A DNA stretch of 64,000 nucleotides from Clostridia bacterium (GTDB lineage Bacteria; Bacillota; Clostridia; Oscillospirales; CAG-382): contig JAFYPA010000025.1 in assembly GCA_017560085.1 (NCBI GenBank), positions 1,619 through 65,618 on the forward strand, read 5' to 3'. Below are positions 6,320-59,575 of the stretch, piece after piece. Position 1 is the first letter of the stretch. Each line of letters starts with the position of its first letter. The notes under the pieces are model-generated. The model saw only the letters and a list, made by a program, of their open reading frames with translations. It was not told where the DNA came from and did not search any database. Both the position numbers and the translations under genes were made by a program.

Positions 6320-6506
6320 AATAAGGTAATAGGGAATGGGGGATGGAAATTCGGAATTTGGAATTGAGTTGAAAATTTTTCCGTTGTAGAAATTTTTATT
6401 ATTTAAAATTAGTGCGGAGGGATTTTAGGATGCGGGTAAAGCCGATATGTCAAAGTTTTGGTCTCGCTTTTTCAAAAGCGAATCGCCGAAGGCCTCCCGT
6501 AAAAAA
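6320..6506. repeat. Composite intergenic repeat: degenerate heptamers + GAAAATTTTTC module + 32-bp module shared with 45704
   Basis: GAAATTCGGAATTT and TGAAAATTTTTC..AAATTTTTATTATTTAAAATT match the reverse complement of 38180-38252; 6450-6481 is identical to 45704-45735. Confidence 0.75.
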
Positions 6507-6509
6507 TCC

Positions 6510-7337
6510 TTACTTTATCCCCGACAAAGCCGCGCCGATAACCGTGCCGTACTGTGAATTCTGGGGGACGTGGATGTTTACATCGAACATTTCTTCGAGG
6601 GTTCTGAAGATTTTGTCTGACTGGGGGATGGTGGTGAGATTGCCTGTGAGGACGATGTCTCTTATGCCGAATCTTCTTGCGGAGAAGACTGCGAGTACTC
6701 CGACGGACTCGAAGACGAGGTTTATTACACCCAGCGCAACATCCGCCCTGTGTGCTACATCGGAAAGCTTTCCGAAGTTGGACGCCGTCATGTAGTCGGG
6801 AAGCCCGGGATGCATCTCCTTGCTGGAAATATCCGAAATTCTCAGGTCTACATTTCCGAGGTCGCCGTCCTTTGCAAGCTCTACGAGATTGTCAACATTG
6901 GATACGCCCAGCATCTTCTTGGAAAGTCCTATCAGCGTGCCTCCGCCGACTCCCGTACCGCCGAGGTATTCTATCGGTCCGCCCTTGACTGCGTGTACCA
7001 TCGCAGTACCTGTGCCAAGACTTCCGATTATCGCCTCGGGAAGTCCCGAAAGATACAGACCGCCAAGTCCGACACAGTCAAATTCCGTCTTGTGTACCGC
7101 GGGAATGCCGTAAAGATTGTCCTCGATAAAGGTCGAGCCTACGCCCGTCATCATTATTTTTTCTATGTCCGAAAGCTTTATTCCGTTCTCAAGCGTGAAC
7201 TTTCCGAATGCCCCGTACGCCGAGGATATCGGGTCGCCCGCCTTTACAAAGGTCGGATTTATCATTTTGTCACCGTCAAAGCCTACTATTTTCGTTGTGC
7301 TTCCGCCGACATCTATTCCTATTATTATATTGCTCAT
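6510..7337 (-). CDS. coaW: Type II pantothenate kinase
   Basis: IGIDVGGSTTK, TGVGS, EF..VGLGG, SLGTGT, GGTGVGGGT, GDLGNVDLRISDI, TASNFGK. Confidence 0.85.
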   Translation of the reverse strand: MSNIIIGIDVGGSTTKIVGFDGDKMINPTFVKAGDPISSAYGAFGKFTLENGIKLSDIEKIMMTGVGSTFIEDNLYGIPAVHKTEFDCVGLGGLYLSGLPEAIIGSLGTGTAMVHAVKGGPIEYLGGTGVGGGTLIGLSKKMLGVSNVDNLVELAKDGDLGNVDLRISDISSKEMHPGLPDYMTASNFGKLSDVAHRADVALGVINLVFESVGVLAVFSARRFGIRDIVLTGNLTTIPQSDKIFRTLEEMFDVNIHVPQNSQYGTVIGAALSGIK

Positions 7338-7378
7338 TTCGTTTTTCCTTTGCCCTTCCGAATTACTTTGCTTTCGCC

Positions 7379-7987
7379 TCAGCTTTTCTTGCCCGCCTGA
7401 CCGATGATTGTCTTGATTGCGGTCGCAAGAAGAAGATTTACGCAAAGCTCAACTACAAAGTTTATTCCGCACAGACCGAAAATAACATATGTGCCGAAGC
7501 TCGCACTTCCCGATGCCACAGACCAGCCTATAATGGTGTCCTTGAAGAAAATAAGCATTCCGAGAACGAAAAGCCCCGTGTTTACTATCGGTACGGCTAT
7601 GCCCGCAAGAATTATCGCGGCAAGACTGCTGAGCCTGCTCGCAAGCTTGTATACAAGTCCCGCGGTAAAGCCCGCAAGCGCGCCCTTACCTATACATATA
7701 ATCGCGGTTGCTATAAAATTCATACCCATAAGAAAGTGTGCCGTGGGGTCTATTATGAAAACTATCACTCCGAAAACAGTGCCGAGTATCGTGCCCGTGC
7801 CGATTCCGTACATCGCAGAGCCTACAAGAATCGGAACAAGCGCAAGCGTAAATGCCACGGGAAGAAGTCCCGCAGAGGAAATCATTGTCGCTACCGCCTG
7901 AAGCACAACTATGATAACTCCCAGAATGGAAATCATTACCATTTTGCGAATAGAGTTTTTGTCAAGCCTTTTTTGTGTCTTATTCAT
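7379..7987 (-). CDS. ECF transporter S component, probably pantothenate-specific (PanT-like)
   Basis: About 6 TM helices, TLALVPILVGS, PIVNTGLFVLG, GINFVVE; directly upstream of pantothenate kinase. Confidence 0.75.
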   Translation of the reverse strand: MNKTQKRLDKNSIRKMVMISILGVIIVVLQAVATMISSAGLLPVAFTLALVPILVGSAMYGIGTGTILGTVFGVIVFIIDPTAHFLMGMNFIATAIICIGKGALAGFTAGLVYKLASRLSSLAAIILAGIAVPIVNTGLFVLGMLIFFKDTIIGWSVASGSASFGTYVIFGLCGINFVVELCVNLLLATAIKTIIGQAGKKS

Positions 7988-8120
7988 AATTATTCATACA
8001 CCTTTCTGTTGATTTTGACTATAACAATTCTATCATATAATCATCCCATTATCAATAGCATAAAGCAAAATACCCCAACTTCACACAGAGGTCGAGGTTT
8101 AGATACCATTTGTTCGCTGT

Positions 8121-8615
8121 TTACTCATTATATTCCGCAATATACGCAATATATCCGTCATAATCGTCGATTTTCACCATTCTGACGTCCTCGGAGAATA
8201 CGCTCTTCTCCTTCATGCAGGGAACACCCCTTCCGATGAGCTTGGAAAGAGCCTCCTTCCTGACCCACATATCGGTAAAGGCTTCATCCGAGGGAGAATC
8301 TCCGAGAAAAGCAATCTCGTCCTCGCAGAAATAACGCCCTGCAAGAGCCGTCGGATTTTTCACTCTCCGCTCCGACCTCTCAAGGTCGATGCCGATTTCC
8401 CTTTGTGAAACAACGACAAGACAAAGCTCCTTGTCATGTGCAACACTGACATAGATTCCGTCAATCCCCACAATATGAGGCTTGCCGTTTTTGTCACGGT
8501 TGACGGAAAACCCTGAGCTGCGGGAAAGATATTCCCTGACCGATGCGATTATTTCCGCATCACTGTTTCCGCCGTCCCTTTTATGGGGATAGGAATATAT
8601 TTTGTAATTCTTCAT
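8121..8615 (-). CDS. 4'-phosphopantetheinyl transferase superfamily protein (Sfp-like)
   Basis: NGKP, SVAH, IGIDLE, WVRKEALSK. Confidence 0.85.
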   Translation of the reverse strand: MKNYKIYSYPHKRDGGNSDAEIIASVREYLSRSSGFSVNRDKNGKPHIVGIDGIYVSVAHDKELCLVVVSQREIGIDLERSERRVKNPTALAGRYFCEDEIAFLGDSPSDEAFTDMWVRKEALSKLIGRGVPCMKEKSVFSEDVRMVKIDDYDGYIAYIAEYNE

Positions 8616-8629
8616 ATCTTATTTGAAAG

Positions 8630-15199: not shown

Positions 15200-15360
15200 A
15201 CAAATAAGGCGTTTTAGGGGCGAAATAAGGGTGGTTTGGGGTAAAATTCACTTTTCGTTAATAATTTGTGTGGGGATATATGGCGGAAAGGGGCGAAAAT
15301 GGGTGAATTTGATATTGGGGTGGAAAGAATTCATAAATTGAGAGGAGGGAGCATAGGATT

Positions 15361-15921
15361 GAATGCATAATCAAGACTGCTTCGCAGTCTTTTGAAGAAT
15401 CCTGCGGATTCTTCTCGCAAGTTCAAAACTCGGAATTCGGAATTGAGGATGATTGCAGGGAATTCTATGAATTCTTTGTAATCTTCAAATAATTAAATTG
15501 GAATTTATAGGGGACAGGAACTAGGAACTAGGGGCTAGGGAAGGTTGGAAGCTTCGCTTCCTTCGTTTAAATTTAAATTGTTGTTTGTCGGTGAGGTTGC
15601 GGGTACGGATTGTAGGGCGCGACGACGAAGACCGCTTGCGGTCTTTTGCGCGCCGTTACCTTGCCGTTTATGCACACCTTGGATTAACAAACCGAATTTC
15701 AAAATATAATTGGATTTGTGCACCCTCAGGCAATCGTGCAAATTACTACCATTGCGATTCCTGCCACGGCGTGCCGAGGTTGAAGAATTCGGAGAATTCT
15801 TTAAAGATTGCAAGCAATCTTTGTCGTCACGCCCTACATTGTTGCGGTGCGTCTTCCCAACAAACCCAAATTTGAAGATTCCGAATTTCAAAAACTGCTT
15901 CACAGTCTTGACTGTGCATTC
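15361..15921. repeat. Nested palindromic composite element with an inner GTAG REP-like doublet
   Basis: Outer imperfect IR 15361-15396 / 15887-15921; inner inverted TGTAGGGCG(C/T)GACGAC..CGCCGT copies at 15611-15656 and 15766-15838. Confidence 0.8.
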
Positions 15922-15967
15922 CGCATCATCTCTTCCCCCTCCATAAAAAAGAAAGGAGCGTGATATT

Positions 15968-47660: not shown

Positions 47661-47677
47661 AGCTGTACTCCAATTTA

Positions 47678-48825: not shown

Positions 48826-48878
48826 CACGCAGAAAATGCGTTTCGGAAATACACTAAAAAACGAAAGGAATCACGACT

Positions 48879-49109: not shown

Positions 49110-49113
49110 TATG

Positions 49114-49147
49114 AAAAACCCTCGGCGGAAATGCCGGGGGTTTTTTT
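49114..49147 (+). terminator. Intrinsic terminator
   Basis: AAAAACCCTCGGC..GCCGGGGG followed by T7. Confidence 0.8.
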
Positions 49148-49608
49148 CGGTGCGGTGCACCGAAATGCATAATGCATAATGCATAATGCATAATCGAGGT
49201 TGATTGCTTCGCAATCTTCGATTATTTAAATTTGGGTTTATCGGGGAGTTTGTGCACCCTCTGAACGCATTTTTAATCTGATGTGGGTGCTTCCTGCTAA
49301 CTCCCTCAGTCAGCTATGCTGACAGCTCCCTCAAGAGGGAGCCATACTGTGCCCCTGCTTTGGTGCGGATATTCGAGTTTTCGCAATGCCTTATGCCATT
49401 TTGTTTTGCATATTGTTTCGGCTGTTGCAGAAGGGTGGACTTTTGTGTGGCTCCCTCTTGAGGGAGCTGTCGCCGTAGGCGACTGAGGGAGTTAGCGGGA
49501 ATCGCAATGATTGTAATTCGCACAATTATAAGTGGGTACACAAACATCCCGATAAACCCAATTTTGCATTTTGCATTTATCATTTTGCATTTCGGTGCAC
49601 CGCACCGA
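49147..49608. mobile_element. MITE/REPIN-like triple-nested palindromic element
   Basis: Perfect 23-bp terminal IR 49147-49169 / 49586-49608; second IR about 49228-49260 / 49533-49565; inner 49-bp IR 49296-49344 / 49448-49496. Confidence 0.75.
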
Positions 49609-49692
49609 CAAATTCCAAAAAAATCCTGCCCCGAAACAGCATCTCACCGTTTCGGGGCGTTCATATTTTTGCTTTATCGGTTAACCGCGATA

Positions 49693-52600
49693 TTACTTCG
49701 CAACCGCCTTAAGGTCGAAAGCCTGTGCGGATACAAGGTTTTCAAATACCGCCCACGCCGCAACATCAACATATGCGTTGTCCTTGAGCTTGCCACCCTC
49801 AAAGTAGCTTGAGCCCTTTACGTTGCCCATAGGCATAAGGTGAATCTGATCGAAGTATGCTGTTCCTGCGGGTACGCCCGTAATCTGAACGATTACCTCT
49901 TCCCATTCATCCGTGCCCTTTGCGGGGTTTGTAGCGGATGCCGCCTTGGAGGCGAGAAGTACATTGCCGTCAGCGTCCTTGAAGCGGTATACGTTGATGT
50001 AGGGTGCTACCTGCTGGTTTGTTCTCATAAGTATCTTGAAGTATACAACTCCGTTACCTGTCTTAGGCTTTGGAAGTCCGTGGCAGTCCATGTTGATTGC
50101 CGCAGAATCATCCTTGAAGCTGAGGTGAACATAGGTAATACCTGTTGCGGAATCTACGAGAGTTTCCGTGTCGTAGGAGTTTCTCTTGTCCTTATAGAGT
50201 GTTTTGTCCTTCTGTGTTCTTATAAGAAGAGGATCTGTAACGTTTGTGCTTTCGGCTACAGCGGGGAGAAGCTCCTTCTCGGGTACTGCGGGAGCGGCTG
50301 CTACCTTTCTGTCCTCGTCCGTTACCTCTGCCTTCTTTTCGTGTGTGTAGGTGTATGTATACTTGGGAATGTAGTCTACATAGTAAACCTGTGCGTTCTT
50401 ATCGCCGAGTGCTGTCTGGATTGCGTACTTTGCTCCGAGGTCTGCTTCAGCCTTGTGGCCTCTGCCGTTTTCGAAGAGGTGGTTGCCGATACCCTGGATA
50501 TATACATTTCCGTCATATACAGGTGCTGTTGCATCAAAGTCGGAGTATGTCTGTGTGAGCTCGTGAACGGCTCTGTCGAGTACGTTGTTTCTGATGTAGT
50601 ATTCGGTGAATTCGTTCTTGGAGTTACCTGAACGGATATTTCTCTGGTTGTTTACGTCGGGACGGATAGAGCCGAAGCCGTAGCCTGCACGACGGAGAAG
50701 GTTTCCTTCAATCACAACATTCTTACCCTGTCTGAGTGCGGTGGGCTTGTCTGTGGATGCGGAGAGGAAGTATTCGATGTTGTATACGCAGTCTGTGATT
50801 ACATTGTCCTTGTAGAGAATGTTGTCTTCTCTTGCATCAACGGTTGAGCCCTTGGAAATCTGATGTGTGATACCTGCATCGTAGCACTGGTAAACATAGC
50901 AGTTTTCAATTACATAGCCGTCGCACGCACCGTAAACCTCGATACCGTTACCGAAGGGAGTTACGGAGCCGTTTGCGTTGTAGCCCTGAGTAGAGCCACC
51001 AATCCAGCCGATTTCACAGTTCTGAATTACAAGACCCACAACTGTGCCCGAGCCGATACCGTGAGAGCCGCCGTATTTTACGCAGATGTTATCGAAGGTT
51101 ACATTGTTAGCCGCCTGAATTACGTTGATTCTTGTGTTGAATTCGAGAGAGTCGAATACCTTACCGGGGTTACCGTTGTCACATCTGAAGTAGAGAGGAC
51201 CACGGGCTGTGCCGATGTTGATAATCTTGGAAGCGGATTCTGCAAGGTGAACGAATTCAAAGTTCTTGTCAAGCTCCTTCTTCCAGTCGTATGCAACGTC
51301 GTTCTTGCCTCTGACAAGCCACTTGCCGTCGTATGTGGGACGCTCCTTGATAGCGAAGCCGCCGTCAACGCCGTCGTTGAATACGATTGTACCTACGTCA
51401 TCATAGTTCTTTTCGTCGTAGTACTTCCAGATGAGTGCGCCTGTTTCCTTATCCTCGTGAACGAGAGTCCACTTCTTGGGATCTGCACCGTTTTCGGGCG
51501 AGCCGTAGAAGGTAGGCTTTGCGCCTTCGCCGTATGCGGTGTAAACAACGCCCGCAACTGCCTGCCACTTTTCACGCCAGATATCGCCTCTCTTAAAGAG
51601 AACCGCGTCACCGGCTGTTGTCATTCTCATAGCCTTTAAAACAGTCTTTACGGGAGTGCTTTCTGAAAGACCGTCGTTCTTGTCGTCACCTGTGGAGGAG
51701 GAAACGTAAATCTTCTTACCCTTGATGCCGGAAAGGTCCATATTGGGTGTGCTTCTGATTTCTTCTATTCTCTTCTCTTCAAGAGCATCGTATTCCGCAA
51801 CCTTTGCGTAGCCTGCTTCCTTGTTGTAAAGAGTTGTTGTGTCAATCTTTTCGCTGAGTGCGAGAAGGGGATCCTTTGTTGTGTAGAGCCACTGACCTGC
51901 CTGCTCAACATGGGGAACCGTTGCTTCCGCAATGTCTGCGAATGCCCAGTGTGTGCTGTCAACATCGAGGAAGAGGATGTAGATGTTGCCCGTGAGGTTT
52001 TCCATCTTCTTGGAGATGCCCTTTGCACGGTTGATTACGGTTACAACCTCTGCTCTTGTGATTGTGTTGTCGGGCTTGAATGTGAATGTGCCGTCAGATT
52101 CTGCATAGCCGTTGATAAGACCTGCGGAAGCCGCCGCCATAATGGATGTGTACTTTGCGTGGTCAGCGGGAACATCTGTAAATGCTGCCTTGATTCCCTT
52201 ATCCTGTGCAAGACCCGTAAGGTATACGAGCTCGGAGAATTCAGCTCTTGTGATGGGCTTGTTGGGCTCGAAGCTACCGCTGTAGCTCTTAAGAAGTCCC
52301 TTAGCCTCGCAGAAGCCGATGTACTTTGCGAACCACTGGTCTGCGGGAACATCAGCAAATGCGGAAGTGCCTGCAATGTTTTCTTCCTTTTCAAGAAGTC
52401 TTGCAATAACCGTACAAGCTTCAGCTCTTGTCATTGTGCCTGCGGGGAGGAATGTACCGTCCGCATAGCCGTTCATATATGTTTCGTGCTTGTCGAATTC
52501 AGGCTCGTCCTTGAAGAAGATGAGGCTGGAGATGTAAAGAGTATCGTCGGGATGCTGATCGTGACCGATAGCTGTACCGAAGCCGTATACCCACATCTGA

Positions 52601-53847
52601 CGGAGGAAGGGAACCGTGCCCTCGATAAATGCTGTGGAAAGCTCGGAAATATCGAAGGTGGAAACCGCCCACGCATCGGTAATGATGTCTTCTCTTGACT
52701 GGAAGCTCATGGGCTTTGAAAGAGTATTGCCGAGGTTTCTGATTTCAATCTTCTGCTTGCCTGTTACGGGCTGCTGAGATTCGTAGTAATATTCGATAGC
52801 GGCATACTTGTATGCGGAAAGGTCGATGTTAGCCTTTGTGTAGTTGTAGCCGTCGATGATTACGGAGCGCTCTTCGGTATATGCGGGGTTGGGTGTTACC
52901 TGAACAACAACCTTGCCGTCGAATTCAACACCGTTTTCAACAACGCCGGTGTCTCTGTTTGTAACAATACCGTTTGCGTAGTCGGAGAAGGAGAAGGTTG
53001 CAATGTCGGGAGAAACAACTCTTACCTTCCACTGTGCCTCATATACAATGTCAAATTCGGGGTTGGAAACAACCGTGCCTGCGGGAACGATATCCTCTGT
53101 ACCGGACTTCTTCCAGCCGAGGAATTCCGCATTTTCAAAGTTATAGGGGTTTTCGGGAAGAGTGAAGGTTTCACCGGGCTTAAGCTTATAGTCCTTGTCC
53201 TCGCCCTGTGCGTCGGGGTTTACCTTGCGGAGCGAGATTGTTGTAAGTGAATCCGGGTCGGGATTCTTCTTGTAGAATACAACCTTATCGATGTAAATCA
53301 CATCTGTTTCCTTGAGTGTTCCGGGATTTGTGTTGTTGAAGGGACGGATACCCATCTGCTTAAGGTTACCGGGTGTACCGCTCATTGCGGAGAGGTTGAA
53401 GATAGCCTCGTCCCACTTGTTTGCAACGATGTCCTTGTTGGAAAGAACCTCACAGCTCATGGGGTTTGAGAATCTGCAGTAAAGCTTTCCGTTGTAGGAG
53501 GGATTCTCCGACTGGTAGTAATATGTAACGCCTACGTACTTATAGTCGGGAAGCGGAATCTTTACAGCCTTACCGTCAACGCCGTAGTGGTCAAGAGTCA
53601 TAACGGTGGAATTTGCAAGATCAGGTGTGGGAGTAATCTTAACAACGCTTCTGCCGTCAAAGGTTGCGTCTCTGTCTGCAATACCTACGGTTGCCTTGTT
53701 AACAAATTCGCAGAACAATGTTCTGTAGTCGTAAACGATTGTGTCACCGTCTACTCTGGGTGCTTCGCCCTGTGAAGCCGAAACGGTAAATGCAAGAGTG
53801 CTTACCGCCATAAGAGCACAGAGCACGAGAGAGAGAATTTTCTTCAT
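49693..53847 (-). CDS. SLH-anchored right-handed beta-helix protein (paralog 4)
   Basis: Same architecture as paralog 1, including the C-terminal module ending DVAAWAVF.NL.SA.AFDL; PFGNGIEVYG, YDAGITHQ. Confidence 0.88.
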   Translation of the reverse strand: MKKILSLVLCALMAVSTLAFTVSASQGEAPRVDGDTIVYDYRTLFCEFVNKATVGIADRDATFDGRSVVKITPTPDLANSTVMTLDHYGVDGKAVKIPLPDYKYVGVTYYYQSENPSYNGKLYCRFSNPMSCEVLSNKDIVANKWDEAIFNLSAMSGTPGNLKQMGIRPFNNTNPGTLKETDVIYIDKVVFYKKNPDPDSLTTISLRKVNPDAQGEDKDYKLKPGETFTLPENPYNFENAEFLGWKKSGTEDIVPAGTVVSNPEFDIVYEAQWKVRVVSPDIATFSFSDYANGIVTNRDTGVVENGVEFDGKVVVQVTPNPAYTEERSVIIDGYNYTKANIDLSAYKYAAIEYYYESQQPVTGKQKIEIRNLGNTLSKPMSFQSREDIITDAWAVSTFDISELSTAFIEGTVPFLRQMWVYGFGTAIGHDQHPDDTLYISSLIFFKDEPEFDKHETYMNGYADGTFLPAGTMTRAEACTVIARLLEKEENIAGTSAFADVPADQWFAKYIGFCEAKGLLKSYSGSFEPNKPITRAEFSELVYLTGLAQDKGIKAAFTDVPADHAKYTSIMAAASAGLINGYAESDGTFTFKPDNTITRAEVVTVINRAKGISKKMENLTGNIYILFLDVDSTHWAFADIAEATVPHVEQAGQWLYTTKDPLLALSEKIDTTTLYNKEAGYAKVAEYDALEEKRIEEIRSTPNMDLSGIKGKKIYVSSSTGDDKNDGLSESTPVKTVLKAMRMTTAGDAVLFKRGDIWREKWQAVAGVVYTAYGEGAKPTFYGSPENGADPKKWTLVHEDKETGALIWKYYDEKNYDDVGTIVFNDGVDGGFAIKERPTYDGKWLVRGKNDVAYDWKKELDKNFEFVHLAESASKIINIGTARGPLYFRCDNGNPGKVFDSLEFNTRINVIQAANNVTFDNICVKYGGSHGIGSGTVVGLVIQNCEIGWIGGSTQGYNANGSVTPFGNGIEVYGACDGYVIENCYVYQCYDAGITHQISKGSTVDAREDNILYKDNVITDCVYNIEYFLSASTDKPTALRQGKNVVIEGNLLRRAGYGFGSIRPDVNNQRNIRSGNSKNEFTEYYIRNNVLDRAVHELTQTYSDFDATAPVYDGNVYIQGIGNHLFENGRGHKAEADLGAKYAIQTALGDKNAQVYYVDYIPKYTYTYTHEKKAEVTDEDRKVAAAPAVPEKELLPAVAESTNVTDPLLIRTQKDKTLYKDKRNSYDTETLVDSATGITYVHLSFKDDSAAINMDCHGLPKPKTGNGVVYFKILMRTNQQVAPYINVYRFKDADGNVLLASKAASATNPAKGTDEWEEVIVQITGVPAGTAYFDQIHLMPMGNVKGSSYFEGGKLKDNAYVDVAAWAVFENLVSAQAFDLKAVAK

Positions 53848-54059
53848 AGTCTCTTTCCTTTCTTTGGGGAAAATTTTAAATTTCGGATAGCCTCCGAAGC
53901 TTACCACTATTATGACTTATTTTTGCTTATTTGTCAAGTGAGAAAATGTTGATATTTACTAAAAAAATAGCAGTTTTTTATATTTTCGGCGAAAGATACC
54001 CGTAATTCACACCCGAAGCAAAAAAATCCCCCGCACGATAGCACGGGGGAAATAGTTTT

Positions 54060-57000
54060 TTATTTTACATCCGCAGGAACATAGTAAAGCTTCGCTTCCG
54101 TCTCACCGATTTTCTCGAGAGCGTCAACGGCAGTACCGTTGAAGTTATACTGTGTCGAGCCGTTTGCACCCATCTTTGTGAAGGTGTTGCCGTATCTCTG
54201 AATGTATGTGTTGCCCTTGAGGACGGGAAGCCATACCGCAGAGTTTGCACCGATGTCGCAGGCGTTTACCTTATCCATAAAGAAGGTATTGTTCTCGATT
54301 CTGAACTCCTCCGCACGGTTATAGGAAAGCTCCCAGCCCTTGATTGAAGCACTTCTTGACGGGTCGTGTCCCCAGCCCTCACCGCTTCTTGCAAGGAGGT
54401 TGTCCGTGTAGTTGATGTTCTTCATATATCTTTCAACGCTTGCCGTATCGCCCGCACCGATGAAATACTCGATGTTGTAGATACACTTGTCGATTACATT
54501 GTTCTTAAAGTATACATTCTGCTGAATAATCATACCTGCGCCACCCGCGGAATACTGATGTGTGATGCCCGCGTCGTAGCACTGATAGATATAACAGCTG
54601 TCGATTGTGAAGCCGTTGCATCCGCCGTAAACCTCGATGCCGTTACCGTATCTTGTCATATTGCCCTTGCTGTAGTGCTGAGCGGAGCCGCCTATCCAGC
54701 CGATTTCGAGATTTCTGAAGGTTACATTATTTACCGTACCCATGGAAATTGCGTGACCGCCGGTGTAGATAAGCTTGAGGTTTTCAAATGTGTTGCCCGT
54801 CTTTGCGGAAATGATGGAGGATCTCTGTGCGATTTCCACGGAGTCGTATACCTTACCGGGATTACCCTCGTCGCATCTTACATAGAGAGTGGAGTTTCTC
54901 GTTGTAACATCCGCACCGTCCGTGTTTACCGTTCCGTAAGCTATTACGAAGGTCTCGTTGGCTGTGAGCATATCCTTGATTTCAACATCCTTGTTGTTCA
55001 GCTGATACTTGCCCGCAACGATTCTCGGCATAACCTTTGTAAGGGTCTTTTCGCCGCCGTTTATAATAACGTTACCTACATCGTTTACCTTGTCGCCAAG
55101 CGCCCAGATGTTTGTTGTGCCCTCAAGGAGAGTCCATCTTGATTCATCCGCAAGGTCACCGAGGATGTTGCCGTTGAATATCGGCTTTTCGCCCTCTCCG
55201 TATGCACCGTAGCTTACATTTGCGACAGCCGCCCAGGGCTCACGCCACATATCGCCTCTGTTGAAGAGCACTGCGTCGCCTTCTCTTGCAACGGAGCCTG
55301 CCTTCTTTGCGGTTGCGAAGGGCTTGTCCGCAGAAAGACCGTCGTTGTCGTCGCTTCCGCTTGCGGAAACATAGTATGTCTTACCCTTTACGGATACTGC
55401 GGAGTCGGGTGCGTTCTTTATTTCTTCTATTCTCTTGTCGATAAGGGCGGAGGTCTCTTCCATCTTCTTTGTGCCCGCATCATAGTCGGGTGTGAAGTCC
55501 TCGTCACCGCTGTCCTCGATGAATTTCTTCTTCCATACCTCCTTGCCGTCCTCGTTATAGTAGGAAATATGACCGACGGAGGCATCTATAATATCGGCAA
55601 ATGCCCAGTGCTCCTCGGTAACATCCGAGAAGAGCTTCTTTGAGGAAGCGGAAATGCCCTGTGCCGAGGGAGCTCTGCCGTAGGCGTTATTGATAACCTT
55701 TACGACCTCTGCTCTTGTAATTGTGTTGTCAGGCTTGAAGCTGAATGTGCCGTCACCATTGTCGTAGCCGTTTACAAGTCCTGCCTTGCCCGCCGCGGAA
55801 ACAACCTCGGCTCTTGCGTGGTCTGCGGGGACATCCGTGAATGTGCCGTTCTTGCCGTTGTCGGAAAGGAGTCCCATATTGTAAACAAGCTCCACGAATT
55901 CGGCTCTTGTGATTGCCTGATTGGGCTTGAATTCACCGCTGTAGCTCTTAAGATATCCGAGCGATTCCACATAGGAAACATACTTGTGATACCAGTCTGC
56001 GGGAAGAACATCGGAGAATGCTGTTGTCTTATCCGCGGGAACCTTATCGTCACCGCCCGCACAGAGTCTTGCAACTATTGTACAAGCCTCGGCTCTTGTC
56101 ATATTGCCGTTCACACCGAATGTGCCGTCGGCATAGCCGTTGATGTAGCTGTCGTGATAGCCCGATGCTGTTGATGCCTCGGGAATTGCGTAAATTTTGG
56201 CAACGTAGATTCTGTCGTTTTCGTTGAGATTCTTTACTGCTGTGTCACCGAGGGGAATAACGTGCGCCTGCATAATTACGGGGTCTACGCCCTCGATTTT
56301 CTTTTCCTTGCCCACTGTGAGGTCAAAGGAGGTAAGCGCCCATCTGTTTGCAACAAAGTTCTCACGGGATACGAGATATGAGTGTCCCTTGAAGGTATTC
56401 TGCTTCATAATGTTGAACTTTGCCTTTGCGCCCGCCACGGGAGTATCCGTAACATATTTGTAGAGAATCATAAGGGTGGAATAGCCGTTGAGGTTAATCT
56501 TCGCACCGCCGTAGCTCCAGCCGTCAAGGATGATTGTACCCGAAGCACCGTTCTTCTCGTATGCGGGGTTGGGAACAATTTCGATTGCGCTCATTCCGTC
56601 AATTTCAACCTTGTTGAGCTTTGCGGTGTTTTCACCGTTACATACACCGTTGGAGTAATTTACAAAGTCAAGCTCCACGAAATCCTCGGGAACAAAGATT
56701 GTAACCCATCTTACAACAAAGCTTGTACCGGATTCGCCGATTGTGTATGTGTCACCGGGCTGATAAAGAATGCCGTCAGCCTCGTTGTACCAGCCTGCCG
56801 CCTCAAGACCCTTTATCGTGAAGGGGATTTCGGGAAGAGTAATCTTGTCTCCGCTCTTGCCCTCCATATTTGCGGGAGCAGTACCCTCTGCCGTGCCCGC
56901 ACCGGATTCGAAGGAAATCTGATGAAGTGCGTTGGGGTTGGGGTTTTCCTCGGAGAAGATGAAGTTTCTTATAAGCATACAGTCACCCTCGTTGAACATT

Positions 57001-57548
57001 GAGGGCGGATAATCACCGAAGGGCAGGAAGTGAATCTGCGAAAGATTCTTTGCACCTTCCGCAATCACGGGCTTAAGACCTGTACCGATATTTACGGTAA
57101 ACTTACTCCACTCGTTCTTTACGAGATTTTCACCGCATCTTACGGTAACCCTCTTGGTGATGGACTTACCCGGACCCGGGTGGAAATTGAAGTAAGGCTT
57201 TACGCTTACGGGTGCATTTGTGACAAGCTTGTATTCCACCGTGAGGTAGTTATATCTTGTCATATCGATACCGAGATTGTCAATGCTGTAGCCGTCGACA
57301 GCCGCAGCACCCGCCTCGCTTGTGGAGGGGATGGGCTCGATTTTTATAACGCTTCCCATATCCTTATCCTCGGATGCGGAAATTACGGCGTGCTTTTTGC
57401 CGTTAACATTGTTTTTCTGGATTTTGGAATAGTGTATCGTAAGAACACCGCTGTCCGCACTCTGTGCGGAGGTAAATGCCGTGAACGACATTGCGCTCGC
57501 CGTCATAACGCAGGCAAGAGCCGTTGCAAAAATTTTTCTGAGCTTCAT
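54060..57548 (-). CDS. SLH-anchored right-handed beta-helix protein (paralog 5)
   Basis: Signal peptide, two N-terminal modules, B-repeat, SLH repeats, RYGNGIEVYG, YDAGITHQ. Confidence 0.88.
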   Translation of the reverse strand: MKLRKIFATALACVMTASAMSFTAFTSAQSADSGVLTIHYSKIQKNNVNGKKHAVISASEDKDMGSVIKIEPIPSTSEAGAAAVDGYSIDNLGIDMTRYNYLTVEYKLVTNAPVSVKPYFNFHPGPGKSITKRVTVRCGENLVKNEWSKFTVNIGTGLKPVIAEGAKNLSQIHFLPFGDYPPSMFNEGDCMLIRNFIFSEENPNPNALHQISFESGAGTAEGTAPANMEGKSGDKITLPEIPFTIKGLEAAGWYNEADGILYQPGDTYTIGESGTSFVVRWVTIFVPEDFVELDFVNYSNGVCNGENTAKLNKVEIDGMSAIEIVPNPAYEKNGASGTIILDGWSYGGAKINLNGYSTLMILYKYVTDTPVAGAKAKFNIMKQNTFKGHSYLVSRENFVANRWALTSFDLTVGKEKKIEGVDPVIMQAHVIPLGDTAVKNLNENDRIYVAKIYAIPEASTASGYHDSYINGYADGTFGVNGNMTRAEACTIVARLCAGGDDKVPADKTTAFSDVLPADWYHKYVSYVESLGYLKSYSGEFKPNQAITRAEFVELVYNMGLLSDNGKNGTFTDVPADHARAEVVSAAGKAGLVNGYDNGDGTFSFKPDNTITRAEVVKVINNAYGRAPSAQGISASSKKLFSDVTEEHWAFADIIDASVGHISYYNEDGKEVWKKKFIEDSGDEDFTPDYDAGTKKMEETSALIDKRIEEIKNAPDSAVSVKGKTYYVSASGSDDNDGLSADKPFATAKKAGSVAREGDAVLFNRGDMWREPWAAVANVSYGAYGEGEKPIFNGNILGDLADESRWTLLEGTTNIWALGDKVNDVGNVIINGGEKTLTKVMPRIVAGKYQLNNKDVEIKDMLTANETFVIAYGTVNTDGADVTTRNSTLYVRCDEGNPGKVYDSVEIAQRSSIISAKTGNTFENLKLIYTGGHAISMGTVNNVTFRNLEIGWIGGSAQHYSKGNMTRYGNGIEVYGGCNGFTIDSCYIYQCYDAGITHQYSAGGAGMIIQQNVYFKNNVIDKCIYNIEYFIGAGDTASVERYMKNINYTDNLLARSGEGWGHDPSRSASIKGWELSYNRAEEFRIENNTFFMDKVNACDIGANSAVWLPVLKGNTYIQRYGNTFTKMGANGSTQYNFNGTAVDALEKIGETEAKLYYVPADVK

Positions 57549-57746
57549 AAGAGTTCTCCTTTTTCTTTTGGTTTATACAATTCTATCACAGTTTGGTGTT
57601 TGATGTCAATATGTTTTTGGTATGCGGTTTATTAGTTTTTCGCCAAAAAGAGCACAACACCCCTCCCCGACCCGACTTTCGGTCGAAAATACCGTACAAC
57701 GAAAAATCCCCCGAAAAATCGGGGGAATGTCTTGAGGTCTTATGTG

Positions 57747-58508
57747 TTAATGTCTCGTCTTCGTATCCCGAAGAATAAACTCCGCAATAATATTCGCCAT
57801 AGGGCTTGAGCCGTCCTCGTAAAGCTCCTTTACGTATGCACAGTGATTGCCGTGCATAATTCTCATATCAACCTTGCTCATATCGTATCTGAAATGGCGA
57901 AGGGTGGAGATAACGAGATTCGTCTGCTCCAGTCTGTTTTCCATATCGTTATCCGAAACTATGAACATCATTCTGGGATATTCCTTTTCAACGCCTATGT
58001 GGTAAAGAGGTGCCGCCTCGTCGATAATTACTCTGTTGCGGTTGATTCCTCTTTCCTTTTCAAGGATATTGAAGTGAGTTGTAGGCTGACCCGCATCGTG
58101 GAGATAGCCCGCAACGTCCATAGGGTCAACGCCCGCATCACGCAGGAAGTGGGTATCAAAGCAAAGCATCATGGAGAGGTAACCGCCCGCAGAGCTTCCG
58201 CCTACGAAAACGCCCTTGCATTTGCCGTAATTACCTATATTCTTCATAGTCCACGCAACAGCATTTGCGCTGTCAACGACAAAGTCCGGGAATTTCGCAT
58301 CGGGGTACATTCTGTACTGAGTGCTTGCAACGGCAAAGCCCATTTCCATAAGCTTGTCGTGGAAGGGCTCCCAGCTTCCGCCCGCAACCATTCCGCCGCC
58401 GTGGAAATAAACGAAGCAATAAAATTCGTCCTTGCCCTCCGGAATACGAAGGTCAAGATAGCACTCCTCGGAAGCGTCGCTGTACATTATATGCTTATAA
58501 ATAGCCAT
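57747..58508 (-). CDS. Alpha/beta hydrolase (HSL-type esterase)
   Basis: FHGGG, GSSAGG. Confidence 0.88.
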   Translation of the reverse strand: MAIYKHIMYSDASEECYLDLRIPEGKDEFYCFVYFHGGGMVAGGSWEPFHDKLMEMGFAVASTQYRMYPDAKFPDFVVDSANAVAWTMKNIGNYGKCKGVFVGGSSAGGYLSMMLCFDTHFLRDAGVDPMDVAGYLHDAGQPTTHFNILEKERGINRNRVIIDEAAPLYHIGVEKEYPRMMFIVSDNDMENRLEQTNLVISTLRHFRYDMSKVDMRIMHGNHCAYVKELYEDGSSPMANIIAEFILRDTKTRH

Positions 58509-58524
58509 ACCGTCACCCTCTTAA

Positions 58525-58833
58525 TCACTTATTTTCCGCATTCTTCGCATCAAGAGCTCTGTTGCGGAAGTAAATACCGAGATTTACGCTTACAACAACA
58601 AGATTGAGTATGTAGAAGAACACAACGTACCACTTTGTGCTTCCGATATTGAATCCGATATTGATAAACTTGGAAGCGATACCGCAAACGTAGCCGAAGA
58701 GAATAAGGCTGAGGAAGAGCGGGCTTGTGCCCTTTGCAGTACGAGCCTTAAAAGCCTTTCTCGCATTGATAGGCCAGGAAGCACCGAAGCTTACCACCAT
58801 AAGTATTTCCAAAATTTCCGCCAAAAATTCCAT
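58525..58833 (-). CDS. PQ-loop/SemiSWEET-like small membrane protein
   Basis: Three TM helices, FGASWP..RTAKG.S..F. Confidence 0.65.
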   Translation of the reverse strand: MEFLAEILEILMVVSFGASWPINARKAFKARTAKGTSPLFLSLILFGYVCGIASKFINIGFNIGSTKWYVVFFYILNLVVVSVNLGIYFRNRALDAKNAENK

Positions 58834-58929
58834 AGTAAAAATTCCTTTCTTGTTCCCACATTACGGGAGGATTTTGTTGTTGCTTTTATTATACAACAGA
58901 ATTTTGGTTTTGTAAAGAGGAATTTTGAA

Positions 58930-59389
58930 AAATGCAAAATGGTAAATTGGAATTTGTCGAGGAATTTGCATCGTGTAGGGAACGACCTATGTGTCGTTCC
59001 GCTTGTTCCAATTTTGAATCTGTTGTGGCGATGCACCACACATATTCTGTAGGGGCGGGGTTCTACTCCGCCCGTTCCCCGGACATCGCACAAAGCATAA
59101 ACAAAAAACATAAACATAAAATCGACAAAAGCATCGAAAATTAATATATTTCTGCATTAGCGCCCCTCCTGCAAATGATGTTATTCCAGCATCGGCATTC
59201 CTGCGAAACGGGAGGAGCAGAGCCCCTCCCCTACAATGGCAATTGTACATCGCCACATCAGATGCGAAAATGGCAGGCACGGAACGACACGCAGGTCGTT
59301 CCCTACAATCCGCACCGCAACATCCCCACAACCCCCTAATTTTGCATTTTGCCCTTTGCATTTTGCATTTCGGTGCACCGCACCGACAA
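58930..59389. repeat. Nested palindromic element with two pairs of GTAG REP-like sequences (BIME/REPIN-like)
   Basis: ~100-bp inverted arms 58974-59076 / 59207-59307; right end 59364-59389 identical to 49586-49611. Confidence 0.85.
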
Positions 59390-59575
59390 CCCCCCATTTG
59401 AAGGACATAATTCACCTTACACCGCAGCCACCCTTCGCACAGCAATAATCATGCGAGTCTGAAATGTTTTCAAAATAGAAACAGAAAATGGAATAATGGG
59501 GAGTATAATAGGAATGCAAAATGTAAAATGCAAAATGAAAAATTATAACCTTAATATAGAGAAAGGTCTTTTACT

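Follow-up and report, generated by a model that had tools for sequence, protein, structure and literature searches.

What fills the long intergenic gaps of this gut bacterium, and by what route did it reach them? The gaps are occupied by nested hairpin repeats whose ends bear tandem 7-letter words. A preliminary description of the window, i.e., the whole stretch of 64,000 nucleotides analyzed here, had read seven such gaps between positions 6320 and 59545 as one system of elements with fixed ends and interchangeable cores, mobilized in trans. With the seven gaps as blastn queries against the 3.10-Mb genome (G000, a metagenome bin, 91% complete), the modules gave from 10 to more than 400 matches and flanking coding DNA gave one. 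Comparisons were made with G001, a second species of the same genus, with the further relatives G002 to G005, and with a panel of 41 related genomes. The material is not a single element. At least three repeat families lie one inside another in a constant order, and every family has a counterpart with a gene at other places in the genome: PF05635 genes for the U arms, DUF559 genes for the X doublets and a RAYT-like gene for the GTAG REPs.

Anatomy of the seven loci

The same parts are indeed reused in all seven gaps: tandem heptamers, C-TTC-G hairpins, an A5T5 hairpin, an AAATT-N4-TTTRTCG end and variable cores. The four matches between distant loci listed in the preliminary description are all exact and are given below. 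Period-7 arrays in the window were called with Tandem Repeats Finder. Features lie on the plus strand, except that right arms are on the minus strand and the Z modules and the cores of loci 6 and 7 carry no strand.

In locus 1, GGAATTY heptamers (h3) precede the A5T5 hairpin module C (6345-6410; 20-28 genome copies by blastn), an order (h3>C>) that recurs. A nested hairpin, the Z module (6450-6506; 12-22 genome copies), lies against the 3' end of a minus-strand gene that ends at 6510, and its positions 6450-6481 are identical to 45704-45735. The left arm of locus 2 (15362-15416) consists of one AATGCAT unit, a P2 hairpin (AAGACTGC-TTC-GCAGTCTT; 13 genome matches) and a P3 hairpin (GAAGAATCC-TGC-GGATTCTTC; 21 matches), with 15362-15391 repeated exactly at 40914-40943 in locus 4. 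It is followed by a U unit (15430-15561; 35-57 genome matches) with h3 and h5 arrays (15430-15444, 15516-15532) and a GGAAGC-TTC-GCTTCC hairpin. The core (15575-15873), assigned from its sequence and the E motif statistics, is an E-TIR element (AAATTGTTGTTTGTCGGTGAGG ... CCCAACAAACCCAAATTT) that encloses an inverted GTAG REP pair (GTAGGGCGCGACG at 15612; CCCTAC at 15832); its genome copies number six for V1 and two for V2. By reverse complement, the right arm (15874-15921) mirrors the left, with an h3 unit, a P2-like hairpin and an AATGCAC unit.

Locus 3 opens with a GAAAATAGGTAAT lead, an (AGTGAAG)3 array (h4; 37463-37482) and a C hairpin module with 28 genome matches (37452-37535). Its core is a 131-aa accessory ORF amid two inverted C modules (37671-38066). 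The ORF gave a weak DUF5071 match (21.1 bits, under the cut-off of 27), matched no NCBIfam family and is present in 2 of the 41 related genomes. The mirrored right arm (38180-38327) comprises a C module, h3 units, a GATTGC-GAA-GCAATC hairpin, (AATGCAT)4 (array 38271-38302) and a P3-like hairpin, annotated h1< P3>. Locus 4 is a solo half-element (40884-40943) of 5.7 heptamers (array 40884-40923) and a P2 hairpin, which lies between the stop codon of copA, a gene recognized by its domains, and the terminator-like hairpin of that gene (~40950-40985). In locus 5, 12.6 mixed AATGCAT/AATGCAC/AATCGGA heptamers (array 45259-45344) and a GATTGC-TTC-GCAATC hairpin (together 45259-45370) stand immediately past a terminator T-run, and 45349-45370 equals 49199-49220 in locus 6. 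A 79-bp tandem repeat of 2.5 copies (Tandem Repeats Finder; 45414-45613; 9-21 genome matches) forms the core, and a Z module (45640-45760; ~20 matches), part of which is found in G001 at 94% identity, adjoins the trmB terminator.

The left arm of locus 6 (49147-49250; order T> h1> E>) contains a T hairpin (CGGTGCGGTGCACCG), (AATGCAT)4 (array 49164-49194), a U hairpin and a left E-TIR. Its core (49285-49500) is a pair of X hairpin doublets (X> Xm X<; X has 20 genome matches), the same doublets that frame DUF559 genes. In the right arm (49540-49611), a right E-TIR is followed by a (GCAAAAT)n array (h2; 49561-49592) and a T hairpin; 49586-49611 is identical to 59364-59389 in locus 7. There, h2 units, a left E-TIR (AAATTGGAATTTGTCG) and REP R1 (GTAGGGAACGACC...; 21 genome matches) at 58931-59005 lead to an inverted pair of REP R2 (GTAGGGGCGGGGTTCTACTCCGCCC and its imperfect complement; 59046-59243), which matches REPs inside the RAYT-like ORF. 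The right side (59275-59389) holds the mirrored REP R1, a right E-TIR, an h2 array (59339-59370) and a T hairpin. A separate (AATGCAA)n array (59513-59543) lies immediately upstream of the gene starting at 59576. The preliminary description had several elements start right behind terminators or stop codons, as found at 40884, which overlaps the copA stop, and at 45259 and 49147, just past T-runs.

Order and orientation across the genome

The modules are enriched genome-wide. There are 146 period-7 arrays (at least three exact 7-mers), whereas the other periods between 4 and 12 have 0-10 apiece. Among perfect triloop hairpins with 6-bp stems, loop TTC occurs 172 times and GAA 122 times, with at most 55 for any other loop; TTC hairpins have C-G closure in 264/294 cases and use 87 different stems. 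In a U unit, ~4-5 tandem heptamers lead into a C-TTC-G-loop hairpin, which is followed by an AT-rich tail; such units stand alone or form inverted pairs, ~190 bp in length, that fold back on themselves. Within 55 nt on the inward side, 120/156 AATGCAT-type arrays have a perfect stem of 6 bp or more, vs 27/156 outward and 4.45% of 2000 random positions. Exactly four units are present in 72/120 AATGCAT arrays. Inverted array pairs fold at z < -3 in 46 of 48 cases (median -8.45), with array-array pairing in 37 of 48. In 33 units the hairpin stems pair completely (100%) at positions 1-5 with three pair types at positions 2-5; the variable sites are hairpin loops and centers.

The similar outside-to-inside order reported from the window proved to be a fixed one, h1 > P2 > P3 > T > h2 > E > X or R, and also h1 > h3 > C. 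Heptamers do point inward, since adjacent array pairs 30-330 bp apart are convergent in 49/62 cases. A gene as core, seen in the 131-aa ORF of locus 3, is rare: at 700-1500 bp only 5/24 pairs are convergent, and the genes bracketed by arrays are ordinary accessory or housekeeping genes.

The end motif AAATT-N4-5-TTKRTSR has 150 matches genome-wide vs 10 for a reversed control. The inner MITE-like elements have a common terminal inverted repeat, AAATTGGRRTTTGTCGG, around X hairpin doublets or inverted GTAG REP pairs. Fixed ends with interchangeable cores hold for this layer, in which 17 strict AAATT..TTTRTCG pairs enclose GTAG REP pairs (6), X doublets (5) or other cores (6); the notion of one system gives way to the nested families. 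E-TIR elements are independent of their surroundings, because at 19 left junctions the same terminal repeat adjoins different sequence (U hairpins 8, C modules 3, h2 arrays 3, the rest other). TA flanks these elements at 12/19 left and 7/11 right ends, which may simply be part of the inverted repeat.

Gene-bearing counterparts

The genes that the preliminary description suggested searching for alongside the same repeats, i.e., RAYT, DUF559 and four-helix-bundle genes, all exist elsewhere in the genome. Seven Avd-like four-helix-bundle genes (PF05635) score 77-138 bits (cut-off 33.8). Four of them are immediately preceded by h5, h4 or h1-type arrays, three of these four also by a U hairpin, and in one, on contig C6, the array arm is mirrored downstream; as background, an array is present in the 150 nt upstream of 147 of 2356 crude genes (crude ORF calls). 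The other three are preceded by ~155-nt palindromes in which a 7-8-nt word alternates with mini-hairpins. Each of these paralogs, 29-60% identical to one another, has its own word, and the word palindromes also exist as gene-less copies. For heptamer classes h2 and h3 a partner gene is absent from the assembly.

The association extends to other genomes. In G001 a PF05635 gene is enclosed by convergent AATGCAT arrays, and the G002 cassette orthologous to that on C6 has kept the hairpin with a different heptamer in both arms; G002 to G005 have PF05635 genes and lack AATGCAT arrays. Outside G000, the upstream word is repeated at least four times at 14/29 PF05635 genes vs 7/174 control windows. 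When proteins from different genomes share a word, they group in the tree (mean identity 82%, n=11, vs 50% for different words, n=205). This does not prove recognition of the word, since related proteins inherit gene and leader together. Four-helix-bundle proteins such as Avd are not known to cleave DNA.

X-like hairpin doublets lie alongside both DUF559 genes of G000 and all five copies examined in relatives. DUF559 has a Vsr-like endonuclease fold. Around the genes the order is X< gene X>, and the gene-less form is reversed, X> .. X<, so that the latter is no simple internal deletion. The RAYT-like HUH-Y1 gene on contig C21 scores 76.9 bits against NCBIfam REP_Tyr_transpos and contains an inverted REP pair that is 88% complementary; locus 7 REP R2 matches its two REPs at 100% over 27 nt and 97% over 37 nt. 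A GTAGG palindrome lies inside the ORF in 7/7 homologs and its reverse complement in 6/7. Copies of the RAYT-gene REP are scattered through three homolog genomes (15, 14 and 8 times) and through G000 (at least 10 sites).

Evidence for copying

The preliminary description proposed comparing orthologous gaps for presence and absence, and the two species of the genus do differ. Nine gaps with flanks 73-89% identical were compared. For six, G001 has a filled gap and G000 a short one that lacks the G001 heptamer arrays (66 vs 23, 489 vs 82, 717 vs 88, 225 vs 76, 459 vs 130 and 535 vs 286 bp), and one has different elements in the two species. The hisH-hisA gap, filled in both, keeps AATGCAT-type arrays at both ends with an interior that differs; in the L146/C36 gap, also filled in both, an unrelated interior stands beside other heptamers. 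Neither a target-site duplication nor a clean empty site could be demonstrated, and the intergenic DNA of G001 and G000 is unalignable at this divergence.

Long copies within G000 are near-identical: exact 80-mers are present in as many as 12 copies and exact 120-mers in as many as 6, array plus hairpin recurs as an exact unit at many loci, and 77 of 318 repeat islands are located at contig ends. The 120-mers point to recent copying. Copying is also indicated by a four-helix-bundle cassette on contig C29 of G000, which matches one from another family at ~90% identity over promoter, leader and gene only. The four-unit peak, the long exact repeats and the islands at contig ends argue for copying rather than slippage.

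Origin of the nested layers

The reading that we favor, with confidence somewhat above even, is that the gaps hold gene-less nested palindromes of at least three families, copied with the aid of the products of their partner genes. The gene-less copies would be non-autonomous relatives of the gene-bearing cassettes, brought into new gaps by the cassette gene products. New copies may insert preferentially in the AT-rich centers or loops of pre-existing palindromes, which would build up the Russian-doll layering, and would be co-transcribed with their neighbors as RNA hairpins. Mobilization in trans, put forward in the preliminary description, is something we infer; between the arms in G000 we found no transposase-like gene and no protein of a known transposase fold.

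Alternatively, the modules might be selected structural cassettes that are not mobile, serving as mRNA 3'-end stabilizers, intercistronic processing sites or leaders at the RNA or DNA level, with recombination shuffling copies into mosaics. Elements occupy the gaps as far as the adjoining stop codons and ribosome-binding sites. Outer array ends lie within 45 nt of gene ends in 86/225 and of gene starts in 42/225 cases, about twice the frequency at random intergenic positions (23% and 9%; crude ORF calls), and one 190-bp h4 family faces the downstream gene start in 8/10 copies. This gap-filling position and orientation would also fit a selected regulatory role, as would the solo unit between the copA stop codon and terminator, stems that vary while pairing is maintained, the shared hisH-hisA array ends and the scarcity of islands in divergent gaps (23/212 classifiable vs a 17% background). 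However, two 190-bp elements scanned contained no promoter, the downstream genes have no function in common, and the six gaps filled in just one species and the repeated 120-mers speak for copying. We therefore consider the cassette explanation unlikely, although it is compatible with mobility, as a copied element can be co-opted.

It is likewise improbable, in our judgment, that the palindromes spread otherwise and are only landing pads, with the small genes (four-helix-bundle, DUF559 and the 131-aa ORF) being mobile and homing into the centers, so that the association reflects target choice. Such homing would account for the central position of the sparsely distributed 131-aa ORF, the opposite framing of DUF559 and the variability of loops and centers. 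It also agrees with the C29 four-helix-bundle cassette, which moved between families as a unit with its own promoter (11/12 consensus positions matched). On the other hand, each four-helix-bundle paralog has its own word, the leader moves with the gene between genomes, the heptamer changed jointly in both arms of the G002 and G000 cassettes, and the REPs lie inside the RAYT-like reading frame in all seven homologs.

Quite improbable is a third possibility, that HUH-Y1 enzymes move all layers as single-stranded hairpins and the small genes are bystanders. G000 has two Y1 enzymes, a multi-copy IS200 TnpA and the RAYT-like protein, and the REP cores match the gene of the latter. The commonest hairpin, GC-TTC-GC, reads on the other strand as GCGAAGC, an unusually stable DNA mini-hairpin. 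Yet G002 has an IS200 TnpA without AATGCAT arrays, and G001 has arrays, U units and GTAG REPs while the RAYT-like gene was not found there. That slippage-prone heptamers lie beside unrelated hairpins by chance, as a published slippage account of prokaryotic heptanucleotide excess (summarized in PMC4692102) could suggest, is hardly credible, being contradicted by the four-unit peak, the convergence, the inward hairpins and the exact recurring units.

Comparison with known systems

The repeat arms that frame three kinds of small genes offer a testable lead on long-unexplained bacterial 7-letter repeats. The preliminary description did not recognize the combination as described; some parts of it are published. 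What is reported in PMC4692102 includes convergent heptamer arrays with a mode of four units in Xanthomonas, and PMC3733652 includes REP dimers within long palindromes.

BIMEs, which become mosaics through recombination between copies, are the model for the structural-cassette explanation. REPINs and IS200/IS605-derived palindromic elements, with their movement as single-stranded hairpins, are the model for transport by HUH-Y1 enzymes. The heptamer arrays and U hairpins differ from these in that they have no GTAG head and are unlike IS200 ends.

Repeat modules in the window and in the genome

The window belongs to contig C10 of a metagenome bin (G000) of 3.10 Mb in 128 contigs, 91% complete and with 46% G+C; sequencing runs with DNA near-identical to the window are labelled as animal gut metagenomes. 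Its proteins include gyrase A, a copper ATPase and proteins with S-layer-homology and copper-amine-oxidase-N domains, a set consistent with an organism of the Clostridia type. A preliminary description had read seven of its intergenic gaps as one trans-mobilised element system with fixed ends and interchangeable cores. The observation itself is confirmed, and the interpretation is supported in part. The listed parts are present where they were placed, the gaps hold ten period-7 arrays plus a 79-bp repeat (Tandem Repeats Finder), and all four matches claimed between distant loci are exact. The modules are also enriched throughout the genome, with 10 to >400 blastn matches compared to a single match for flanking coding DNA, and the GC-TTC-GC hairpin proved to be a recurrent motif, 264 of the 294 TTC-loop hairpins being closed by C-G. 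Rfam (gathering threshold) and tRNA scans gave no match within the window.

The window also encodes five very large ORFs of 1162-1421 aa (26957-31222, 32578-36276, 41065-45201, 49693-53907 and 54060-57548), four of them with S-layer-homology domains. They have internal repeats in common, which show up as repeat islands within coding sequence and have no relation to the intergenic elements.

Heptamer arrays

Throughout G000, 146 arrays of at least three exact 7-mers were found, versus 0-10 for each other period between 4 and 12, and AATGCAT accounts for 95 of them. The number of units in exact AATGCAT arrays (n = 120) is 2, 3, 4, 5 and 6 in 25, 19, 72, 3 and 1 cases, respectively, a sharp mode unlike a slippage spread. 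If reading starts at the first ATG, the mini-frame in an AATGCAT array is ATG CAT AAT GCA TAA.

The arrays are accompanied by small hairpins at a defined side. Perfect triloop hairpins with 6-bp stems carry TTC (172) or GAA (122) loops, any other triloop occurring at most 55 times, and the 294 TTC-loop hairpins have 87 different stems. Of 156 AATGCAT-type arrays, 120 have a perfect stem of 6 bp or more within 55 nt on the inner side and 27 on the outer side; 4.45% of 2000 random positions have such a stem. On the strand of the array the loop is TTC 59 times and GAA three times. Among adjacent arrays, 49 of the 62 pairs with a spacing of 30-330 bp are convergent. When the spacing is 700-8000 bp, 53 of 101 pairs are divergent, the arrangement expected where complete elements are neighbours.

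Nesting order and inverted units

Modules were labelled by blast and a period-7 detector. In 318 repeat islands the heptamer classes h1 (AATGCAT-type), h4 (AGTGAAG), h2 (GCAAAAT), h3 (GGAATTY) and h5 were counted 171, 74, 54, 30 and 24 times. From outside to inside, the order h1, P2, P3, T, h2, E and then X or R recurs at many loci, P2, P3, T and X being hairpin modules, E the AAATT-N4-TTTRTCG repeat and R a GTAG REP; a second recurrent order is h1, h3 and hairpin module C. With > and < for module orientation, the window locus at 49147-49616 reads T> h1> E> X> Xm> X< h2< T<.

The elementary block of the outer layer, here called the U unit, consists of about 4-5 heptamers, a short in-phase linker, a C-TTC-G-loop hairpin and an AT-rich tail ending in AAATT. 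Inverted U pairs occur 48 times with a spacing of 60-330 bp, most elements measuring about 190-200 bp. When folded single-stranded, these pairs gave a median z of -8.45 relative to mononucleotide shuffles, with z < -3 in 46 of 48 and the two arrays pairing together in 37 of 48; scores of this strength are expected from their construction.

Two further features of the window deserve mention. The Z module (45640-45760 and 6450-6506), about 120 nt long, forms a nested hairpin and has some 20 copies in G000, located at gene 3' ends; it is partially conserved at 94% in G001, a second species of the same genus, and has no Rfam match. At 37671-38066, in the third window locus, an AT-rich ORF of 131 aa lies exactly between two inverted C hairpin modules. 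It gave a weak DUF5071 match only, was found in 2 of 41 genomes and looks like an accessory gene that landed at the palindrome centre.

Inner E-TIR elements

The AAATT-N4-TTTRTCG motif is the terminal inverted repeat (E-TIR) of MITE-like elements. It matches 150 times in G000 compared to 10 for a reversed control. In the 17 strict convergent pairs, which span 125-447 bp, the core is a GTAG REP pair in 6, an X doublet in 5 and another sequence in 6. In one X-type subfamily, up to 12 copies share an exact 80-mer and up to 6 an exact 120-mer. All 19 left junctions of this subfamily share the terminal repeat, beyond which lie U hairpins (8), C modules (3), h2 arrays (3) or REP, P2, unique or truncated sequence (5).

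Because the terminal repeat is common and the cores differ, this layer does have fixed ends and interchangeable cores. The earlier claim thus stands for the E-TIR layer only and fails as a description of the whole architecture. The E-TIR element is an element in its own right, which usually, not always, lies inside U arms. TA flanks the element at 12 of the 19 left junctions and at 7 of the 11 on the right; being palindromic, TA fits either a target duplication or an extension of the repeat, and no target-site duplication was definable at the E-TIR junctions or in orthologous gaps. Genes for IS110, TnpB and IS630-type DDE (DDE_3) transposases were not found in the 91%-complete G000 assembly.

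Four-helix-bundle genes framed by heptamer arms

The preliminary description had proposed four-helix-bundle, DUF559 and RAYT genes as possible partners of the repeats, and all three kinds, the last as a RAYT-like gene, are present. The four-helix-bundle genes, seven in G000 (PF05635, 77-138 bits), are framed by heptamer and hairpin arms. On contig C6 (L175:1501-1818) an h5 array and a GAAAGC-TTC-GCTTTC hairpin lie on both sides of the gene, mirrored. Directly upstream of the genes on C109, C78 and C26 are h4, h1 and h4-type arrays, followed by a U hairpin on C109 and C78, and the genes on C35, C118 and C29 have upstream palindromes of about 155 nt in which the word GTGAAAT, AATGATG or ATGAATTG alternates with mini-hairpins. 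A tandem array stands upstream of 4 of the 7 genes versus 147 of 2356 crude genes (p about 4e-4; binomial, our own arithmetic). The seven proteins are 29-60% identical pairwise, and each has its own word. The words also occur away from the genes: GTGAAAT clusters number seven in G000 (one by the gene, two by gene remnants and four gene-less), and two of four ATGAATT clusters are gene-less.

The association extends to other genomes, from which 29 PF05635 genes (20 genomes) were collected. In G001, AATGCAT arrays at 5800 (+) and 6298 (-) of C45 enclose a gene (5929-6234), and in G002 the ortholog of the C6 cassette has kept the hairpin, with GGATTTA-type heptamers in both arms. A word repeated at least four times in the 260 nt upstream (7-mer plus complement) was found for 14 of the 29 genes versus 7 of 174 control windows. 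In a maximum-likelihood tree, same-word proteins from different genomes cluster (ATGAATT 100/99, AATGATG 100/96). Mean identity is 82% for pairs with the same word (n = 11) and 50% for pairs with different words (n = 205). Since kin share both gene and leader, the match of word and protein demonstrates co-inheritance of the cassette rather than recognition.

The C29 cassette (L216, C29:13700-15139) is about 90% identical to a stretch of G050 (L195), a genome from another family of the class. The similarity ends outside promoter, leader and gene, the sequences on either side having nothing in common. The leader is a word-and-hairpin sequence of about 170 nt, the first half of which is repeated downstream of the gene in G000; its promoter, TTGAAA-17-TATAAT, agrees with the consensus in 11 of 12 positions and has an upstream TG. 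The cassette looks to have been transferred horizontally as a whole.

All seven genes match PF05635, the '23S rRNA intervening sequence protein' family, which according to passages of one paper resembles Avd of diversity-generating retroelements (PMC10053308). A diversity-generating retroelement was rejected as an explanation: with seven PF05635 genes and no reverse transcriptase (PF00078) match in the 91%-complete assembly, the genes are stand-alone and not retroelement parts. The nearest solved structures are 2GSC (Xanthomonas campestris XCC0516) and 2RLD, with five chains each; 2GSC, the nearest to the C6 protein, comes from the organism of the described GGGAATC arrays. Literature searches turned up no account of heptamer arrays framing PF05635 genes.

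DUF559 genes and X doublets

Both DUF559 genes of G000 occur with X doublets. The gene on C83 lies between X< and X>, and that on C123 has an X-like doublet downstream. In relatives, five of five DUF559 genes examined stand beside similar hairpin doublets, three of them with doublets on both sides. The order X< gene X> is opposite to the gene-less form, X> .. X<, so the latter is not a simple internal deletion.

A RAYT-like gene with intragenic REPs

A single-copy Y1 gene of 178 aa lies between ruvA and ruvB on contig C21 (L002:1399-1935). It scores 76.9 bits with the NCBIfam model REP_Tyr_transpos (cut-off 80) and 33 bits with the IS200 model, and the HxH motif and conserved Tyr are invariant in the RAYT-like alignment. 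This RAYT-like HUH-Y1 gene carries the same REPs that occur elsewhere in the genome. R1 and R2 gave 21 and 8 blast matches in G000; they have GTAGGG heads and, within the nested elements, are confined to the innermost cores. An inverted doublet, R1> R2> ... R2< R1<, occupies window 58966-59305, and 6 of the 17 E-TIR pairs hold GTAGG together with CCTAC.

The REPs of window 59046-59243 recur inside the RAYT-like reading frame, with 100% identity over 27 nt and 97% over 37 nt. The intragenic copies are inverted, on either side of the HUH motif, and recur at at least 10 other sites in G000, many at contig ends. Homologs were detected in 9 of 40 other genomes searched, none from the same genus; the gene was not found in G001, though G001 has similar REPs. 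A GTAGG palindrome is present at about nt 105-135 in all seven aligned homologs (L149-L155), and its reverse complement at about nt 295-333 in six, with only the heads visible in G021. The sequence of the intragenic REP varies between species, and the two copies within one gene match. In the G000 gene, translation passes through the first REP in another frame and gives CRGGVLLRP in place of VGQGLAPA, which argues that DNA and not peptide is kept. In three genomes the intragenic REP is dispersed (G009 15 times, G015 14 times, G033 8 times). Passages of two papers (PMC5581495, PMC6006769) contain no mention of intragenic REPs. RAYT-like genes with an intragenic REP pair bear on the question of how the match between a domesticated transposase and its repeat is maintained.

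G000 also holds a classical multi-copy IS200 tnpA (L003:1300-1581 and L001; C39 end and C97). Its left end has a perfect hairpin (ACCACCAGCAGTGCTGGTGGT) and a stem that hides the ribosome-binding site; compared by eye, this end is unlike any module, which speaks against IS200/IS605-derived palindromes as the source of the modules. The C39 copy (L003) stands just after a terminator, and IS200 copies break contigs.

Genomic placement of the islands

The following placement figures rest on crude ORF calls (2356 ORFs, 90% coding). Contig ends hold 77 of the 318 islands; the nesting of the gene-less copies explains why short-read assemblies break at such gaps. Of 212 classifiable islands, 136 lie between tandem, 53 between convergent and 23 between divergent genes, with background frequencies of 65%, 18% and 17%. 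For 86 of 225 arrays, a gene end lies no more than 45 nt from the outer end of the array, versus 23% of random intergenic positions; for a start codon with ribosome-binding site the same distance applies to 42 arrays, versus 9%. Outer flanks without a terminator often carry a G-rich purine tract (GGGAGG, GGGGGA), e.g., at window 15340-15361, 38303-38340 and 15921-15945. The 29 islands with a midpoint in crude ORFs mostly concern spurious short ORFs or over-long starts; the rest are a few single-array hits deep in long ORFs and one island in the RAYT-like gene.

A 190-bp family with h4 arrays is oriented toward the downstream start in 8 of 10 copies; a role as promoter cassette was rejected, as no sigma-70 consensus was present inside the two copies scanned (L162). 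Thirteen convergent array pairs lie more than 330 bp apart and enclose a HTH regulator, GNATs, EamA, ProRS, a FGGY kinase, ferritin and others. These are ordinary genes without a transposase among them, which contradicts an autonomous element bounded by arrays. Arms as cassettes of the GxxExxY nuclease (PF13366) were likewise discarded: no match was found in G000 or G001, and there was one marginal match among 41 genomes.

Distribution and turnover between species

AATGCAT arrays (pattern matches) number 175 in G000, 30 in G001 and 1-2 in two other genera, and were not found in the other 37 of 41 genomes searched. AGTGAAK arrays number 59 in G000, 18 in G014 and 1-2 in eleven further genomes. 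For array-bearing loci of G001, we located the flanks in G000 (73-89% identical) and compared nine orthologous gaps, a choice by element presence in G001 that builds in the direction of bias. Six gaps are filled in G001 and short in G000, where the heptamer arrays of G001 are lacking (66/23, 489/82, 717/88, 225/76, 459/130 and 535/286 bp). One gap contains different elements in the two species. The hisH-hisA gap is filled in both, with AATGCAT-type arrays at both ends and a different interior, and so is the L146/C36 gap, with an unrelated interior beside other heptamers. The differences are real despite the selection bias. The modules are 92-100% conserved between G001 and G000, better than the coding flanks.

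At the strain level, no empty site was bridged by Logan contigs of four runs (window 36500-56400); these contigs break at element borders, and depth is 10-90 fold higher over the elements. A search of metagenome contigs with a HAD hydrolase as bait gave no relative above 71% amino-acid identity and hence no close strain, and the 80 loci retrieved (510,597 bases) contain only two heptamer arrays.

Arrays of the form (AATGCAT)3-AATC also occur in 23 stretches of other species (L095-L117), mostly from gut Bacteroidales/Muribaculaceae bins, and on eight stretches of seven viral contigs (L219-L226). The inner parts of these cross-phylum loci differ, many other heptamer units are nearby, and the habitat is the same. 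The small ORFs between the arrays of the Bacteroidales loci are, read by eye, ordinary small proteins. Two contigs of another bin (L101, L103) end directly after a heptamer array in adapter-like sequence, which we take to be the Nextera adapter; heptamer arrays may be spots where assemblies meet adapter read-through.

Proposed mechanism and alternatives

The results show three repeat families with a fixed architecture and nesting order, each with a gene-bearing form, as well as recent copying and turnover between species. To explain them, we propose that the gene-less forms, as non-autonomous relatives, rely on the products of the small genes. New copies would insert into older palindromes, at their AT-rich centres or loops, which would make the oldest layer the outermost; hairpin loops are indeed where small hairpins and variable inserts were seen. 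The host would tolerate the elements because they occupy the space left between stop codons, terminators and ribosome-binding sites and are probably transcribed as hairpins. We lean toward this reading as a whole.

Two alternatives overlap with it. The islands could be selected structural cassettes rather than mobile DNA; the array ends sit close to gene ends and start codons more often than random intergenic positions do, whereas the filling of six of nine orthologous gaps in one species only speaks against it. We give this explanation a small probability. Alternatively, the palindromes could be landing pads for mobile small genes. The 131-aa ORF at an element centre and the opposite order of the X doublets around DUF559 speak for it, the separate word of each four-helix-bundle paralog against it; this explanation seems improbable to a similar degree. 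That HUH-Y1 enzymes move all layers is harder to maintain: the RAYT-like gene and IS200 supply such enzymes, while GTAG heads are restricted to the innermost cores. Finally, plain slippage repeats, of free length and independent of their neighbours, share with the arrays the over-representation of period 7 (146 versus at most 10), but are contradicted by the four units in 72 of 120 arrays, the inward hairpin at 120 of 156 and the convergence of 49 of 62 pairs, and can practically be dismissed.

For the dependence of gene-less copies on small-gene products, a more specific and rather doubtful idea concerns the heptamer arms. The stand-alone Avd-like proteins might be sequence-specific heptamer readers, a five-subunit ring engaging about five 7-nt words of single-stranded DNA or RNA, with an own word for each paralog, and driving or controlling the copying both of the cassette that encodes them and of gene-less foldback copies by the hundreds. 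If true, the heptanucleotide repeats of Xanthomonas, cyanobacteria, Beggiatoa and gut Bacteroidales would have a common cause, and a protein-repeat partnership parallel to RAYT-REPIN would exist with a different fold.

Comparison with known systems

The REP cores and Y1 gene fit the REP-RAYT kind, save for the intragenic REPs and the sub-cut-off score. As in REP, BIME and REPIN systems, GTAG-headed imperfect palindromes form inverted pairs, are extragenic, lie mostly between tandem and convergent genes, build mosaics with linker motifs and are tied, as the species' own REP, to a single-copy Y1 gene. Unlike in those systems, a REP pair lies inside the RAYT-like frame instead of flanking it, and REPs make up the innermost layer only, the heptamer arrays, C-TTC-G hairpins and E-TIR having no GTAG head. 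REP dimers embedded in longer palindromes are described for A. variabilis and H. neapolitanus in passages of an earlier paper (PMC3733652).

The E-TIR elements resemble MITEs such as Correia elements in their small size (125-447 bp), lack of coding sequence, terminal inverted repeats of about 20 bp and many near-identical copies. They differ in that the G000 assembly yielded no parent insertion sequence sharing their ends and in that the cores are interchangeable, some being REP pairs. Drosophila foldback elements have long inverted arms of short tandem sub-repeats around a variable centre, and the BOX elements of Streptococcus pneumoniae, a Firmicute, are intergenic repeats with a modular A-B(n)-C build. 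The G000 elements are like the former in their sub-repeat arms and variable centre and like the latter in their modularity and Firmicute host; sequences and hosts are, however, unrelated and neither is known to have a heptamer unit. To our knowledge, neither has small partner genes of the four-helix-bundle, DUF559 or RAYT-like kinds.

The closest likeness in the repeat unit is to known heptamer arrays, i.e., GGGAATC of Xanthomonas, GGGGAYT of Nostoc, TAACTGA of Beggiatoaceae and the cyanobacterial STRR, which are heptanucleotide repeats; all are intergenic and far over-represented. Over-representation of heptanucleotide repeats in many bacteria has been known since 2007 with no agreed cause, and GGGAATC in Xanthomonas has a mode of 4 units and 70-75 convergent pairs, is mostly transcribed and has no known partner (passages of PMC4692102). 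TAACTGA arrays stand a few nt upstream of start codons and have a cross-phylum distribution (PMC4679880). The Xanthomonas and Beggiatoaceae papers report neither a partner gene nor a link to mobile elements (PMC4692102, PMC4679880). In contrast, the G000 arrays are outer arms of nested palindromes, have an inward hairpin (120 of 156) and frame PF05635 genes.

The heptamers of G000 are thus outer arms of copied palindromic elements and not loose simple repeats. The same arms frame Avd-like genes, with one word per paralog, by which an old descriptive puzzle becomes testable at the bench. Three repeat-gene partnerships (four-helix bundle, DUF559 and RAYT-like) are found side by side in one genome, with the nesting of the gene-less copies visible. 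What is new compared to the known systems is the joint architecture together with the gene-repeat partnerships, above all that of heptamer arms with Avd-like genes.
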